Below, piece after piece: positions 2,438-22,949 of a DNA stretch of 64,000 nucleotides. A model generated the notes under the pieces. The model was given only the letters and a program-made list of their open reading frames with translations. It ran no database searches and was not told the origin of the DNA. Source of the stretch: a virus. The stretch's first letter is position 1; each line of letters starts with the position of its first letter. The translations under genes and the position numbers were made by a program. The stretch covers positions 22,829 through 86,828 of the IMG/VR virus record IMGVR_UViG_3300017963_000231; one strand, given 5' to 3'.

Positions 2438-2767
2438 ATGGCTGAAACAAAGAAAAAGATCAAGGAGATGGGGAAAGTAACCGTTACTCGAACCATGCTT
2501 AAGGCGGGAGTAGAAGAGAAAACGCATGATAAGGAAGAGGAGATCGAAATCACGCCTTTTGTGACTGAGCCCGCGAAAATTGCCGTATCCAAGGGGTTGA
2601 CCTTGAATCTCGGGAATTACCGTTCGGCTCGTATCGATGTATCAGTGGCTATCCCTTGCTATGTGGAAGAGGTAGGGGAAGTTATTGAGCAAGTCAATAA
2701 CCTAGTTGAGGCTCGGGTGATCATGGAAAGGGATTCGGTTCTGAAGGCTGGAAAGAAAGATGCCTGA
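2438..2767 (+). CDS. Hypothetical phage protein
   Basis: Strong RBS (AAGGAGG); in operon with the recombinase. Confidence 0.8.
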   Translation: MAETKKKIKEMGKVTVTRTMLKAGVEEKTHDKEEEIEITPFVTEPAKIAVSKGLTLNLGNYRSARIDVSVAIPCYVEEVGEVIEQVNNLVEARVIMERDSVLKAGKKDA

Positions 2768-3917
2768 TGATCCCAAGCCAAAGACACTTTCGGAGGTTCT
2801 GACGGGTCTTAAGAAGCGGCATGGCGACGGGATTGTTTGTACTCCTTCAGAATCGAGAATATCTTCGCTCGTTCCCCGGTTGTCTACTGGCGTTTTCATG
2901 CTGGATTGGGCTACCGGGGGCGGGTTCCCTATTGGCCGGTTTGTTATGATCAAAGGCGATGAGGGGGCGGGGAAATCGACTATCGCCCTTCGGGTCATAA
3001 CGGCGGCTCAACAAACTTGCCGGTATTGTTACGCCACTTTTGATCCGGAAGCAAAAAGTTTTCCTCATGCATCAGATTGTGAGTGGGAGAAGCATGATGA
3101 TGAGAGTACCACTATGCGAGTGGTCTATGTGGATATTGAGGGGACATTTCTGAATTCTTGGGCTCAAACGGTGGGGGTCGATCTTGGAGACATGCATTTG
3201 AGCCAGCCTGAGATGGCAGAGCAAGCGATTGACATCATTCAGGAGCTTTTGGTTGAGGGTGTTGTTGATCTTGTGGTGCTGGATTCAGTGGCCAGTATGA
3301 GCAATCAAGCGGAACTTTCCAAGTCAGTTGAGGATACCATTGTCGGGAAGGGCGCGATGTTGATGAATCGAGCTTTCCGGGAGTGGGGAGCGGCAATGAA
3401 TCGTTCGGCGCTCGTTACCGGTCGAAAGCCCATGTTCATTTTCATTAATCAGGTTCGAGAGAAGCCGGGAGTTCTTTGGGGGTCTCCTGAAACAGTGCCC
3501 GGTGGGAAGCATCAACTTTTTGCGCCTTCTTTGATTGTCAGGATTCGCTCGAAAACGCCGGACATGAGTAAAGGGACTATACCAAGGCCCTTGCGGTGGA
3601 ATAATGCTTTTACGGTCGAGAAGAGTAAGGTGGGTCCGCCTAAATTGAAGGGAGAATATCAGACTGCGGCAGTGAGTTTTGATGGATTTATTCAGGGCGA
3701 TGTTCTGGATTTTGATACCGTTTTGAAATTTGCTAAGGAAACGGAAGTTTTGGTCCAGGATAAGAAAAAGTGGGTCTATACTCCATCAGGTCTTGTTGGC
3801 CTTAAAAAGGAGTATAGGGTTCAAGGTGATGCCGTAGAAGATTGGATTAAAGATAAAGCTCTTTATGACAAGGTGAAGCGGATTGTATTGAGGAGGGCAT
3901 TGCTTGCCTTATCGTGA
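2760..3917 (+). CDS. recA: RecA/UvsX-like recombinase
   Basis: STG..LD.A.GGGFP.GR, GDEGAGKST Walker A, VVLDSVAS, FINQVREK and PETVPGG motifs. Confidence 0.9.
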   Translation: MPDDPKPKTLSEVLTGLKKRHGDGIVCTPSESRISSLVPRLSTGVFMLDWATGGGFPIGRFVMIKGDEGAGKSTIALRVITAAQQTCRYCYATFDPEAKSFPHASDCEWEKHDDESTTMRVVYVDIEGTFLNSWAQTVGVDLGDMHLSQPEMAEQAIDIIQELLVEGVVDLVVLDSVASMSNQAELSKSVEDTIVGKGAMLMNRAFREWGAAMNRSALVTGRKPMFIFINQVREKPGVLWGSPETVPGGKHQLFAPSLIVRIRSKTPDMSKGTIPRPLRWNNAFTVEKSKVGPPKLKGEYQTAAVSFDGFIQGDVLDFDTVLKFAKETEVLVQDKKKWVYTPSGLVGLKKEYRVQGDAVEDWIKDKALYDKVKRIVLRRALLALS

Positions 3918-4383
3918 CACATGGGGTCGTTCGAGACGGGCTTATGATCATCTCGGGATCGTGGTTGAATCCGAAGCTGAGTTGATAAAATTGCTTCTCA
4001 CGTATGAGGGCGAGGTTAATAGACGGTTCTCCGGCATTTATTCATCGGTTTTGAGTGAGTGCCCAAATGATGGGGAGTTTAAGTCTGATCTTTCTCATCG
4101 AGTAAGAAGCATGTGGGAGGCTAATTTTGCCCGTTGGATGCGGTTTCATCAGATACCTTATGACTATGAGTGTTTTCGATTCCGGCTCAATAATGGGATG
4201 AATTATGTTCCAGATTTTCGGGCATGTCCGTCTGGAATATGGATTGAGGTTAAGGGTATTTGGATGCAGGGGGCCAAAGAGAAGGTGCATCAGTTCATGG
4301 ATGAGTATCCTAATCATCGGATCATCGTATTGGATGAGGAGTATTACCGGATGCTGACTCCGGTTCCAGGATGGGGAAAATGA
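3904..4383 (+). CDS. PD-(D/E)xK endonuclease; start uncertain
   Basis: RSMWEANFAR...YDYE...YVPDF...WIEVKG. Confidence 0.75.
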   Translation: MPYRDTWGRSRRAYDHLGIVVESEAELIKLLLTYEGEVNRRFSGIYSSVLSECPNDGEFKSDLSHRVRSMWEANFARWMRFHQIPYDYECFRFRLNNGMNYVPDFRACPSGIWIEVKGIWMQGAKEKVHQFMDEYPNHRIIVLDEEYYRMLTPVPGWGK

Positions 4384-8188: not shown

Positions 8189-8377
8189 ATGGAATTCAAT
8201 AAGCACAACAATGACTTAGTACGTAGGTTAAAGGTTCGCAAGGAGGAGTTCGAGGAGGAGAAGGAGATGCTCCTGAATCATCCTGGCGTTACTGAGGAAG
8301 GGCTAAAAATCACTTTGGCTTGGTTGGATCCTATGCTTGAGGATCTGGAGAATAAAATCAGGGGGTTAGAGGGATGA
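8189..8377 (+). CDS. Small helical hypothetical protein
   Basis: RBS GGAGG before ATG 8189; ATGA coupling to the next gene. Confidence 0.65.
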   Translation: MEFNKHNNDLVRRLKVRKEEFEEEKEMLLNHPGVTEEGLKITLAWLDPMLEDLENKIRGLEG

Positions 8378-8898
8378 CGGGTGGCGGTGTAGTCAAGGAA
8401 AAGGTTTTCATTGAAAAGGTTTTCATTGTTCACATGATTGGAAATCCTACTGATTTTCATGGGAATAAGACTAATTTTCTCAATCTTGTGGAACGGGTTA
8501 AGAAGATTGATGAGGTTAGAGGGTCTAGTTTTGCAGATATCGTGGAGCATTGCATCAAAGTGAAGCAAAGTCTTATCGAATCACGGCATGGAGTGCCCAT
8601 TAATGGAGTTACGGTGGTAATGGCTCCAGGAATGGAGCATTTTGCCATTTCGATTTGTAGTGGGATGGATCAGTTTAGCAGGAAAGTAGGCCGTCTCTTG
8701 GCTTTGAATCGGTTGGCGAATAAATTTGGAGTTCTGACCATGCGACCTAAGAAACGGGTGTATTATGAAGGATATCTGATCCTGATGCCTCCGAATAACT
8801 TCTTGGCCGATGAGGCTACCAAAAGAATCAAAATTCCCGATATTCGGGAGGAGTTGGCGTGGCTGGGGGTGTGGGATGGAGAAGAATCAGGCCGTTGA
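8374..8898 (+). CDS. Hypothetical protein
   Basis: Coupled ORF. Confidence 0.7.
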   Translation: MTGGGVVKEKVFIEKVFIVHMIGNPTDFHGNKTNFLNLVERVKKIDEVRGSSFADIVEHCIKVKQSLIESRHGVPINGVTVVMAPGMEHFAISICSGMDQFSRKVGRLLALNRLANKFGVLTMRPKKRVYYEGYLILMPPNNFLADEATKRIKIPDIREELAWLGVWDGEESGR

Positions 8899-9099: not shown

Positions 9100-9876
9100 A
9101 TGAAAGAGGCTAAGGTAGGAATGATCGATCTCGGAAATACCGGGATGGATGTAGGGTCTGAGCTTTATGATATTTGGCGGGTGAAGATCAAACTTCGGAA
9201 TGTGGTTTACGGCGGGGTGCCCAAGGATCCGAAAATAATTCAGAAGTGGATTGATGAGAAGATCAAGAAGGCCATTAAGGCCGGGCATGACATCACGCCG
9301 GAAATCGCGGAGGAAGAGCGGAAAAGGATCATGGAGACTCTGAATCTGGATGAGGACTCTAAGTGGTGCGGGTTCAAGGATATCTATCAGGGCGAAGAGG
9401 TTGGGCCGTATCTGGACGGCTACAATTTCAAGGCGATGATCCGAGAAGGGGCTACTCAAACCGGAGCCATGCTCCTTCGGTTCTCAAATAACCGGGGACT
9501 TCGCCAGCATTATCAGCATGGGATGCATGTCAAGGCAGGGGACGGCAAAAGCGATATTATCAGGTTGGGTAAGGTGGATGGTCAAGAAGAGTTTGTGGGC
9601 CATGTCAAGACTCCTCAAGGCGAAAAATCCATCCTTTCTCGGCATGATTATGTGGGATCGAGGGAACTTGAATTCCAGGTTTGGAGCCTCGCGGTAGGTA
9701 TCCTGGATGATGAATTGTTGGCCACCATCTTGAAGGCTACTCAGGAGATTGGACTTGGGGCTTGCCGGTCCAGGGAGTTGAGCAAGTTCGATCTTGTGGA
9801 GATGGAGCGGATTCAGGTAGGGAAGATCGACCATTTTCTCAAGATGAAGGCCAAGAAAGGGAAAAAAGACGCATAA
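9100..9876 (+). CDS. Solo Cas7/RAMP-like RNA-binding protein
   Basis: N-terminal strand RVKIKLRNVVYGG, PYLDGYNFKAMIREGA (like the P.ipg.s.KG.lR motif of Cas7/Csm3) and C-terminal G-loop GLGACRSRELSKF; RBS AAGGAGG. Confidence 0.75.
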   Translation: MKEAKVGMIDLGNTGMDVGSELYDIWRVKIKLRNVVYGGVPKDPKIIQKWIDEKIKKAIKAGHDITPEIAEEERKRIMETLNLDEDSKWCGFKDIYQGEEVGPYLDGYNFKAMIREGATQTGAMLLRFSNNRGLRQHYQHGMHVKAGDGKSDIIRLGKVDGQEEFVGHVKTPQGEKSILSRHDYVGSRELEFQVWSLAVGILDDELLATILKATQEIGLGACRSRELSKFDLVEMERIQVGKIDHFLKMKAKKGKKDA

Positions 9877-9881
9877 TGTGC

Positions 9882-10000
9882 GGAGATTTTCCCACAAGGA
9901 GTATGGTTTTTTCAGGCGGATGATTTTAACGCTTTCGGGATCATTTTAGCGTGAGGGGATTCATTTCCGATTTTTGTGGATGATTGGGCTTCTTGTGGGA
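9882..10000 (+). repeat. Degenerate GGA-headed repeats with about 20-nt period
   Basis: GGA at 9898, 9918, 9938, 9957, 9978 and 9998, several followed by T(G/C)ATT. Confidence 0.5.
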
Positions 10001-10094
10001 AGTGGAGGGTCAACTTAGAGTTGACGGGAGTTATCGGCCCCTCCCGGCTGAGAATGACTTTGAAACGGCGGGGTTTCAGGGTAATTTGATCTTT

Positions 10095-10572
10095 GACAAT
10101 TCAGTGGGACAAGTCAGGCTAGATCAGTACAAATCATGGGGACTTATCTACTCTGTGCAATACTACTCAGTTCAAATCGAGAGGACTTTTCCTTGCGCTA
10201 CCTATCGGAACGGCAAGACTGATCCAGTCATCTCAACTTATATCAAATCGGAGCGACTTTGCGTTACCAGTCCACTCAGGTCGTTATGACTCATCGGATC
10301 ATCTCAACTCGTGTCTAGAGGACCAATCAGCTAGAGGCAAATCGGAACGTATCCATGGGACTAATCTAATCAAATCTGTTCTGAGAGACTACACTATACA
10401 ACGCACTACGAAACGGTATGACCACTCATGACGGAGCAAGGCGAAGCTATGCCCAGGGACTTATCTAATCAAATCTGTTCTGAGAGACTAGGCACTTCAT
10501 TACCTATCATTGTGACATATCAATTCGATTCCAGGGGACATATCAAACCGCTACTGATCGATACGGAGGGAC
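10095..10572 (+). repeat. Pentamer-periodic array: 15 units of GAC-(NNNNC)n-NNNNN plus a terminal GAC; candidate guide-RNA array
   Basis: All GAC-to-GAC distances equal 3+5k nt; 68 of 71 internal pentamers end in C (hand count). Confidence 0.92.
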
Positions 10573-10577
10573 AAAAT

Positions 10578-11165
10578 ATGAAATTAATGGTTTGCAATAA
10601 ATGCGGAGATGTGATTTTTCCTCGCGGGGAAGCGGGGATATGGAAGTGGTGTATTTGCGGAAACATTGGAGGCATGTACGAGGACGGGTTGAAGTTTCTT
10701 GTGGCGATTGACGATCCGGATTATGCTCGGGTTGTGGGGATCGATAACAATGTTCTCGTAGGGAACTGTGACTTAGGGGAGATATGGAAGCAAAAGCCGG
10801 GTGATCCAGCTTCCGGACGTAACCTGAAGGAGATATCCATTACCGAGGCCAGACGGGTTTACGGGTACTCTGGAGAGGCTTCGGATACTCTTGTGATCGA
10901 CTTGGCTAAGGTGGTAGGGGTAGTTCCATCTGATTCGAGCCCGTGCTTTTCGGAAATGGTGTTCCATCTTGTCATGAAGGCTGATCGTATTAATAGGGAG
11001 AGGCTCAGAGCTATCTTCCCTATTTATGTTCAAATGGTGGATAGATTCCAGCTTAAAGACGGGGTTATCGCTCATCCTCAGCATCCGGAGATGGGGTTTT
11101 ATGAGCCTTGCGGGGATAAGGGCTATCAGTGGCGATATCCTTTAGATACGGAGATAAGCAAGTAA
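10578..11165 (+). CDS. Zn-finger-containing hypothetical protein
   Basis: RBS GGAGG at the array end; CNKC...CICG. Confidence 0.75.
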   Translation: MKLMVCNKCGDVIFPRGEAGIWKWCICGNIGGMYEDGLKFLVAIDDPDYARVVGIDNNVLVGNCDLGEIWKQKPGDPASGRNLKEISITEARRVYGYSGEASDTLVIDLAKVVGVVPSDSSPCFSEMVFHLVMKADRINRERLRAIFPIYVQMVDRFQLKDGVIAHPQHPEMGFYEPCGDKGYQWRYPLDTEISK

Positions 11166-11169
11166 AAAC

Positions 11170-11196
11170 GGGGGCTTCGGCCCCCTAAATTTTTTT
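11170..11196 (+). terminator. Intrinsic terminator
   Basis: GGGGGC-TTCG-GCCCCC followed by a T-rich tract. Confidence 0.75.
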
Positions 11197-11235
11197 CATT
11201 TTTTTCTTGACAAACGGTTTTATAGGTGTTATACT
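11188..11235 (+). promoter_or_regulatory. Repeated strong promoter (copy 1)
   Basis: T tracts, then TTGACA(11207)-17 nt-TATACT. Confidence 0.88.
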
Positions 11236-11302
11236 AGATTTTACAATCGAATAACGGGAAACAAGCAAGGCAAGACGTTAAGGAAATAAGGAGGGGAGCA
11301 AA

Positions 11303-22085: not shown

Positions 22086-22949
22086 GTGAGTGGTCGGATA
22101 CGATTAACGGAAGGTTTTCGGAGGTTGCGGCGGTCAAGGAGATTCCATGATATCCATGCTCTTATAGTGGCCGGGGTAGCATGTAATGAAATCGCGAGGA
22201 AGATTCAGATGGAGTGGCGGGAGATGAACACGGTATCCCAAGCAACGTTGGCAAAGCAACTGGAGAGGTATCGTAAGTCCCTGGAGGTAGGGGGGTTGGC
22301 TCCCCATGAGATTCCGGAAGAGGCCCGAAAGGCCAGGGGGGGTATCCTGGGTTCGGCGCTGGAAAAAGGGGGGTGGGCAGTATATGATGCGGAAACGTCC
22401 TCATCTAAGGTGGATGAAGATCCGTACAAAGGTCGGACTAAGGCAGAGATCGAGCAAGCATCTTCAGGTGATTTGGCGAGGATGGTTGAAAAAGAGAAGG
22501 CAATCCCTACTGACGGGGCGGTAGATGTAAAGGAGGGGCTATCCAAGCTACTCGATATTCAGATGGCTCGAATCGCGATGGAGGTAAAGAATGAAGAGAG
22601 TATAGGGAAGCTCATGCCGGGGACGGGGTTAGAAATCAACGTAGCCAAGGATATACTCAAGTCTCTCCATGTGGTGCAGGGGGATCTAGGGTTGACTCAC
22701 AAGGAACCTGATCAGCTATCAGTAGGTATAGGGATCGGTCCTTCCAAGGATTTGACGGAAGCATTGTCTAAGTCTGGATTATTAAAGACTATTTCTGACA
22801 AAAACTCCCGAAAACGTATTTTAAAAGCGCTTCAGGGGGAGACCCCTCTAGGGGGGCAGACATTTTTGCCTGAAATGTCGGAAAATGCGGAAAATGAGGA
22901 TGATGTGGTCCAAGTAGTTGAAAATAAAGGAGGAAATGGGGATGGATAA
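22086..22949 (+). CDS. Hypothetical protein, candidate terminase small subunit
   Basis: N-terminal HTH-like segment, helical body and position upstream of TerL; function inferred. Confidence 0.45.
   Translation: MSGRIRLTEGFRRLRRSRRFHDIHALIVAGVACNEIARKIQMEWREMNTVSQATLAKQLERYRKSLEVGGLAPHEIPEEARKARGGILGSALEKGGWAVYDAETSSSKVDEDPYKGRTKAEIEQASSGDLARMVEKEKAIPTDGAVDVKEGLSKLLDIQMARIAMEVKNEESIGKLMPGTGLEINVAKDILKSLHVVQGDLGLTHKEPDQLSVGIGIGPSKDLTEALSKSGLLKTISDKNSRKRILKALQGETPLGGQTFLPEMSENAENEDDVVQVVENKGGNGDG

Follow-up and report, generated by a model that had tools for sequence, protein, structure and literature searches.

VIPR systems, first described in 2026, silence by means of RNA guides and consist of the protein Vipr and an RNA termed vrRNA (10.64898/2026.04.26.720920). 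Seven types of Vipr are named in that work, and the repeats of the RNA follow the consensus GGY/NN (YNNGG), with "a related consensus" allowed (10.64898/2026.04.26.720920). Vipr has a RAMP fold built of an RRM core, a loop rich in glycine and a thumb; its RNA co-purifies with it, the variable NN specify DNA targets in rival elements, one base being skipped, and an accessory vap gene can stand beside vipr. Type II is known from Escherichia phage SUSP1 and a Pseudomonas fulva prophage (10.64898/2026.04.26.720920, 10.64898/2026.04.26.720927), and in the SUSP1 protein residue D177 reads G1, W178 reads G2 and R179 contacts the pyrimidine (10.64898/2026.04.26.720927). The rules of VIPR have been established for this one type only, type II with GGY/NN. 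Here we analyse a locus of the IMG/VR virus record IMGVR_UViG_3300017963_000231, in which a vipr-like gene for a protein of 258 aa (9100-9876) is followed on the same strand by an array of 5-nt repeats (10095-10572). Positions are those of the window, the 64,000-nucleotide stretch analysed; it makes up the 3' 64 kb (record positions 22,829 to 86,828) of a record of 86.8 kb whose completeness is estimated at 67%. We consider it likely that the locus is a phage VIPR-type RNA-guided system with a divergent, C-anchored dialect. This reading builds on what is observed here: the homology of the protein to Vipr, the grammar of the array, the conservation of this grammar beside homologues and its orientation on the gene's sense strand.

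The array stands out by its periodicity. At lags 5 and 10 the same-base autocorrelation across 10095-10572 reaches 0.391 and 0.378, with 0.18-0.23 at neighbouring lags, while the gene itself gives 0.247 at lag 5. A period-5 score was calculated for every 150-nt segment of the 64 kb at a step of 25 nt (mean -0.013, standard deviation 0.032). The 19 best segments all start between 10026 and 10476, and the peak of 0.20 lies ∼6.6 standard deviations above the mean; nowhere else in the window is a 5-nt periodicity as strong. The triplet GAC punctuates the array at 16 positions (10095, 10108, 10141, 10184, 10217, 10255, 10288, 10321, 10359, 10387, 10420, 10458, 10486, 10514, 10537, and 10570), and all 15 spacings between them are 3 modulo 5, with values of 13, 23, 28, 33, 38 or 43 nt. 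An extra GAC at 10430 is an in-phase pentamer within a unit. The array is thereby divided into 15 head-to-tail units of 13-43 nt each. Of the 70 internal pentamers 67 end in C, and the preceding base is T in 44, A in 14, G in 10 and C in 2. Of the five bases that lead up to the next GAC, the fourth is a purine in 14/14 units. If a unit is written with a fixed triplet and two free bases, as in published VIPR RNAs, it reads [GAC NN][xHC NN]k and closes with a linker of 3 nt whose middle base is a purine; put otherwise, it is composed of GAC, k pentamers ending in C and five further bases. A preliminary description of the locus had reported a 478-nt array in strict 5-nt phase, with pentamers of the form NNN-D-C and GAC as punctuation. 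The periodicity and the grammar, including the D-type base before C, were confirmed, but the phase is strict only inside a unit, because each GAC shifts the register by +3.

The intergenic DNA flanking the vipr-like gene thus carries tandem 5-nt repeats, as in VIPR loci, but not the consensus GGY/NN: the gene-strand pentamer is NN-N-D-C, and the other strand has one G in each pentamer. With Tandem Repeats Finder no CRISPR-like array was reported for the window, and the VIPR-like array went undetected too, since only one base per pentamer is fixed. No Rfam family matched between 8000 and 12000 at E<=1, and a hand count gave no stop-codon depletion among the three free bases (∼6 observed, ∼7 expected). 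Two units, 10359-10386 and 10458-10485, are near-duplicates one base apart, which suggests that the array grows by unit duplication. Near-identical DNA is present in sediment and seawater metagenomes. In four DNA runs compared with the window the flanks are near-identical, and each run leaves parts of the array uncovered. In one contig of low depth, which stems from another sediment sample, there are five substitutions and a 6-nt insertion within 10351-10652, inside the array, as against 1-2 differences per ∼500 nt in contigs of that run that cover the flanks. This hints at an array that evolves faster than its surroundings, for which the data are too thin to make a claim.

The 258-aa protein contains the motifs VVYGGVPK, PYLDGYNFKAMIREGA and GLGACRS and is a stand-alone RAMP/Cas7-like protein with GLGACRSRELSKFD as its loop rich in glycine (G-loop). 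As a single sequence it has no convincing match in Pfam, PHROGs or the PDB; matches to the oxidoreductase entries 3nx4 and 1o89 (E 7e-4 and 0.026) cover a 60-residue stretch only and were read as chance. Scans of IMG/VR with the single protein and with an alignment of its close relatives found no relative. Six close relatives share 66-70% identity, and the vipr-like family as a whole comprises 444 cluster representatives at E<=1e-3 among 1.84 billion, most of them viral. An ESM Atlas model (pTM 0.71) has solely viral hypothetical proteins as neighbours. A family profile of 80 sequences gave seven weak matches in the PDB (E 0.037-0.9), all of them CRISPR RAMPs, six Csm4 and one Cas7, and all aligned on the G-loop. 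Weak Cas6_C matches occur in 13/80 family members and weak RAMPs matches in 6/80. At the G-loop the family consensus is GLGA-x, followed by the nearly invariant R223.

The link to Vipr itself comes from profile comparison. The SUSP1 locus was located by its YNNGG repeats, and 529 relatives of its 195-aa Vipr were collected. When the window family profile (80 sequences) was aligned to a SUSP1 Vipr family profile (35 sequences) with hhalign, the two matched with a probability of 95.9% (E 6e-9), and the 141 aligned columns extend from helix 1 up to the G-loop. In this alignment A221 and C222 of the window protein face the G-readers D177 and W178, which are thus replaced, and the nearly invariant R223 faces R179, the residue that contacts the pyrimidine in SUSP1. 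Replacement of both G-readers with retention of the arginine fits the recognition of an invariant C. At the level of sequence the RAMP-like hallmarks given in the preliminary description are supported, with the quoted motifs in place and a family profile that is homologous to SUSP1 Vipr and weakly matches CRISPR RAMPs. The likeness to VIPR that it pointed out is supported as well: VIPR is in print, and the two families are related. The description had further proposed that each subunit binds one pentamer and recognises the invariant C. Recognition of C fits the predicted G-loop changes, while polymerisation with one subunit per pentamer stays a proposal by analogy. Sequence P0199 had been considered as the seed X1U2U4 of the VIPR paper; it is X0TDZ5, so that this identity was ruled out and gives no direct tie.

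Pfam Cas1 and Pfam RAMPs have no match in the whole 86.8-kb record, and the window holds no CRISPR-like repeat, as is expected of a minimal viral locus and not of a class 1 CRISPR-Cas locus with its repeat-spacer array and further cas genes. The earlier statement that no cas gene is recognisable is thus upheld for Cas1 and RAMPs, the only two cas families searched.

The preliminary description had made its case depend on periodic arrays adjoining the homologues. Sixty homologue loci were assembled, 59 of them informative (at least 400 nt of flank on at least one side). Strong C-phased runs on the sense strand were found within 1.2 kb of the gene in 47/59 loci, upstream only in 19, downstream only in 20 and on both sides in 8, so that arrays of the same grammar do accompany the family. 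Five loci have G-phased runs instead. Among them is L043, whose canonical arrays belong to a neighbouring gene; the other G-phased loci are G+C-rich, and the two inspected, L066 and L067, have no clear G-type array. Neither phase was found at eight loci, three of them truncated; one of the eight, L005, has an array by autocorrelation that lies below the run threshold. The three close relatives with enough downstream DNA carry GAC-punctuated arrays 3' of the gene and on the gene strand, and the same arrangement is present in Microcystis phage Mae-JY09, whose protein is 28% identical. In the phage's own record the array tiles score 70 and 57 (1.2-kb tiles), and the next best tile scores 16. Across the family, phased runs open most often with GAC (575/2700, as against 881/12102 internal positions), and the GAC-GAC spacing is 3 modulo 5 in 169/309 cases, with peaks at 23, 28, 33, 38 and 43 nt. 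In front of the fixed C most relatives have another C, the window and L065 have T, and L005 and L006 have A; G is rare throughout. Rfam assigned no family at gathering score to the 59 homologue loci, and thus no hammerhead; hammerhead-interspersed arrays are therefore absent, and no ribozyme is at hand to fix the strand.

At locus L043 (900-3410 of a 38.5-kb IMG/VR contig) two VIPR systems stand in tandem and share a strand. Canonical GGC/NN arrays flank a type II-like Vipr (∼1781-2218, profile E 3e-12), and next a Vipr of the window family (2501-3154) is followed by a CC/GAC-type array (3169-3320) and then by another GGC/NN array. Protein type and repeat type are thus naturally paired at L043.

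We propose that the + strand is transcribed as one unit, which would comprise the vipr-like gene, the array and the next open reading frame (ORF) and run to a terminator at 11170-11185. Vipr protomers would bind the array RNA, one per pentamer. As in SUSP1 Vipr, two adjacent protomers would sequester the fixed triplet, and the two bases that follow would stay free, the triplet here being x-H-C with T preferred, in place of G-G-Y. GAC would open each unit, and the 3-nt linker would end it and break the register. The array would then give rise to short guides, ∼15 in number, or to short filaments with 2-9 protomers, kept apart either by cleavage at the linker or by mere interruption of the phase. 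By analogy with the described system, double-stranded DNA of a rival phage or element may be what the free dinucleotides read, each pentamer skipping one base of the target, and transcription may be silenced upon binding.

Guides shared between relatives allow a look at the code. The comparison was restricted to the arrays of four close, A+T-richer relatives, since a family-wide search was swamped by G+C-rich chance matches. In four guide pairs both bases after C are identical over 5-7 consecutive pentamers (mean of a shuffled-pentamer control: 0.05); if identity was demanded at other pairs of positions, 2, 1, 0, 0 and 0 guide pairs were obtained. Within the four pairs the third base differs in 8/23 pentamers, the fourth in 14/23 and the fixed C in 4/23. 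The four pairs are a small sample, picked by the very positions that score zero differences. If NN acts as the guide, as it does in GGY/NN, a dinucleotide kept behind the anchor is what one would expect. Some constraint remains on the third base.

Several results weigh against a C-anchored VIPR system. A hidden Markov model of the window family found nothing in the SUSP1 genome, and hhalign of the family profile with the single SUSP1 sequence gave E 0.011 but a probability of 3.7%; both of these weaker tests fail, and the homology to Vipr rests on the profile-profile result. No RNA run is among the sequencing runs listed with near-identical DNA. None of the four shared guide pairs stems from the window's own array. 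Under a two-base code a unit has 10-18 specified bases, and specificity would be low with such short units. Targets did not emerge either. When 44 guides, from the window array and three relatives, were compared with 110 kb of DNA from the window's own record and relatives, no clear excess was seen under any of eight codes: with two bases read and one skipped, 19 guides reached a match of at least 0.9 as compared to 11 in the shuffled control, and with three read and one skipped there was a single 14/15 match, near chance expectation. A pattern scan of IMG/VR with the longest unit (two read, one skipped) returned at least 117 stretches at the chance level of AT-rich DNA. The 80 loci examined have a mean of 31% G+C and converge only among duplicate phages, and these matches were rejected as natural targets. 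Finally, the VIPR paper lists NNNGG, YNNNG and NNNNG repeats and describes a conserved, invariable 3' tail at the end of the repeats (10.64898/2026.04.26.720920), and NNNGG or NNNNG repeats with a 3' tail match the present arrays if these are written on the opposite strand.

The same VIPR-type system could accordingly use the minus strand as its guide, which would read (NNNNG)n, or (NNNGG)n in most relatives, with a 3' tail containing GUC, and be antisense to vipr. Besides the printed repeat forms, the handles conserved in relatives such as L028 and L029 would become 3' tails, and canonical Vipr reads G's (10.64898/2026.04.26.720927). We nevertheless regard a minus-strand guide as unlikely, and consider the C-rich sense strand to be, with good probability, the guide RNA. 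All points that decide between the two are indirect. Where the array lies upstream, the phased tract ends 13-42 nt before a vipr start preceded by a Shine-Dalgarno sequence in 21/25 loci; the array thus abuts the ribosome-binding site, and with no room for a promoter in between, the sense strand must be within the mRNA leader. In the window no minus-strand promoter-like site was found downstream of the array up to the bidirectional terminator-like hairpin at 11170-11185, at which gene, array and next ORF end together. The SUSP1 repeats are located on the gene strand. At L043 the GGC/NN arrays, the CC/GAC array and both vipr genes all lie on one strand, and a minus-strand guide would need antisense transcription wedged amid canonical arrays in sense orientation. 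The residues that read G in SUSP1, D177 and W178, are not kept in the window family, which likewise counts toward the sense strand. Predicted folding points the same way. The + strand RNA of the window array folds worse than 98/100 dinucleotide shuffles (z +2.41; minus strand z 0.12), and folding energy is weaker for the sense RNA in 18/18 arrays and its z-score higher in 14/18, the minus-strand RNAs being predicted to fold much more strongly.

A sense-strand guide may be taken one step further. Jointly, the data could mean that the clade reads a C-rich sense strand by an x-H-C anchor, with a 5' GAC opener and a register break that yields mini-guides, and that it is a VIPR type of its own; we put this forward tentatively, as it is more doubtful than not. 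As part of such a separate type, the protein itself might process the transcript in a Cas6-like manner, and the unfixed third base might take part in reading the target, in which case the code would not be two read, one skipped. A separate type would have its own design rules and a recognition chemistry unlike the published syn-guanine pockets, and the orientation implied by the printed NNNGG/NNNNG notation would need revising.

Another possibility is that the array acts as DNA, as phased protein-binding sites of an iteron-like origin or a packaging region that merely adjoins a RAMP-like gene. The ∼20-nt periodic repeats in the leader before the array would suit such sites, as would the lack of an RNA run among those listed. 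We consider this very improbable, since the partner protein is homologous to the RNA-binding Vipr and the C/G asymmetry tracks the gene strand in 47/59 loci, irrespective of whether the array lies upstream or downstream, for which a double-stranded site offers no reason. Moreover, array length and content vary widely among close relatives while the NN after C is kept in shared units, as would be expected of guides. Chance low-complexity or coding sequence, to which two program-listed ORFs overlapping the array (9984-10289 and 10428-11165) might point, is already refuted by a period of 5 that is incompatible with coding, a signal ∼6.6 standard deviations above the window mean, 15 of 15 GAC spacings of 3 modulo 5 and the recurrence of the grammar beside homologues down to 28% identity.

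With the divergent VIPR system as the preferred reading, the locus shares with the SUSP1 type a phage-borne, stand-alone small RAMP homologue without cas genes (here as far as searched), adjacent non-coding 5-nt repeat arrays on the gene strand, and pentamers in which a single conserved pyrimidine precedes two variable bases. The protein families are related by profile comparison, and the arginine of the G-loop is kept. The two differ in the fixed triplet, x-H-C (T here, C in most relatives) instead of G-G-Y, together with replacement of the two G-readers, and in protein length (258 aa versus 195 aa). They also differ in the build of the RNA: window units have 2-9 pentamers and stand head-to-tail with a GAC opener and a 3-nt linker, whereas SUSP1 VIPR has 9-16 repeats and a structured 3' tail of its own (10.64898/2026.04.26.720920, 10.64898/2026.04.26.720927). 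No shared accessory (vap) gene was recognised at the window locus.

Repeats with other letters have been described as well. The COMPASS preprint reports period-5 arrays beside Vipr-like folds with the triplets GAC/NN, CAC/NN, WGT/NN and TGH/NN (10.64898/2026.10.21.760802). Those arrays resemble ours in their period and in a fixed triplet other than GGY; the text of the preprint, figures aside, names neither an x-T-C nor an N-C-C triplet, nor punctuated units with a 3-modulo-5 shift. GAC is the repeating triplet there, while in the window array it only opens each unit. "Staggered" vrRNA arrays are mentioned in the legend of Fig. S18 of the VIPR paper (10.64898/2026.04.26.720920). In the staggered, NNNGG, YNNNG and NNNNG variants guides abut without spacers and one or two bases per pentamer are conserved, as here, but the conserved base is written G, where the window has C on the gene strand; they may be the same arrays seen from the other strand. 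The preliminary description had suggested a distinct type. This is only partly right: the grammar is distinct, with xHC/NN and a GAC opener in place of GGY/NN, but novelty of the type does not follow, because non-canonical VIPR repeats and staggered arrays are already in preprints. The kind of system is known, and the locus is a divergent example of VIPR, not a new kind. Three features were not found in the texts of the preprints, figures and supplements aside: a gene-strand x-H-C anchor, a GAC opener combined with a 3-modulo-5 register, and loss of the G-readers.

Class 1 CRISPR filaments of Cas7 or Csm3 are a more distant parallel. They share the RAMP G-loop motif and, by analogy, the expected polymerisation of one protomer per repeat on a guide with periodically sequestered bases. 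Similarity of the window family to Cas7 and Csm4 in sequence is sub-threshold only, the step is 5 nt here and 6 nt there, and neither a CRISPR repeat-spacer array in the window nor Cas1 or another Pfam RAMP in the record is present. The opener GAC, short and conserved, resembles the 8-nt 5' handle of CRISPR RNA.

Together with ∼47 related loci the window locus represents a large, mostly viral clade that differs from type II in three ways: the fixed letters on the gene strand are pyrimidines, the G-readers are replaced, and the guides stand head-to-tail with an opener and a register shift. If the sense strand is the guide, Vipr proteins would be retunable to other anchor triplets, which bears on how the RNA grip of RAMPs evolves and on the building of orthogonal VIPR tools. 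If the minus strand is the guide, the locus would be an ordinary member of a variant already in print. The compact array, with 15 guides in 480 nt, offers a simple test bed.

The region between gene and array (9877-10094, + strand) has the features of a leader. A T-rich tract with ∼20-nt periodicity (autocorrelation peaks of 0.35-0.37 at lags 19-21 across 9882-10094) is followed by a hairpin at 10057-10082 and by a conserved motif that ends in the first GAC. The hairpin is terminator-like, with a fold z-score of -2.9, and by eye a hairpin followed by a ...TCTTTGA(C/A)AA-type motif also precedes the arrays of L003, L005 and L006. Hairpin and motif could be an attenuator, or a signal for processing or nucleation. 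A sigma-70 promoter at the TTGACA-like motif before the array was rejected, since by eye its distance to -10-like hexamers is inconsistent among relatives; the promoter prediction for the window does not list it either. In two of these relatives, L003 (∼3910-4140) and L005 (∼1670-1950), a conserved non-array element of ∼230 nt lies between the pre-array motif, itself conserved, and the first guide units. It contains a short hairpin, has no Rfam match, is nearly identical between both loci by eye and is absent from the window.

Directly after the array and in the same direction lies an ORF of 195 aa (10578-11165, + strand) with a Cys-rich, zinc-ribbon-like N-terminus. The closing GAC of the array (10570) sits 5 nt 5' of its start codon, and the last linker also serves as the ribosome-binding site of this ORF. 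The arrays of L003, L005 and L006 are the only ones followed by homologues, and we consider the ORF a possible accessory gene. Upstream of the vipr-like gene an ORF of 174 aa (8374-8898, + strand) is syntenic in close relatives only. Neither flanking ORF has a Pfam family, and both are common to the three syntenic relatives only. The hairpin at 11170-11185 (+ strand), a strong, bidirectional terminator-like structure, is predicted to close the transcription unit of gene, array and ORF. A near-consensus sigma-70-like promoter site (11207-11235; 11/12 consensus matches, TG extension) starts 20 nt after it, and the pair (11170-11247) marks a predicted operon boundary just past the locus.

An ORF family of ∼170-215 aa (∼175 aa) is found upstream of the vipr homologue in 16/53 loci (L001, L048, L052, L056, L058, L061, L062, L065, L070-L073, L076, L077, L079, and L081). 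It has no Pfam match, is not detectable at the window locus and has no detectable relation to the ORF at 10578-11165. Its two BLAST clusters are joined by hhalign (98.5%, E 3e-15), and the family is a candidate vap-like accessory gene of this clade.

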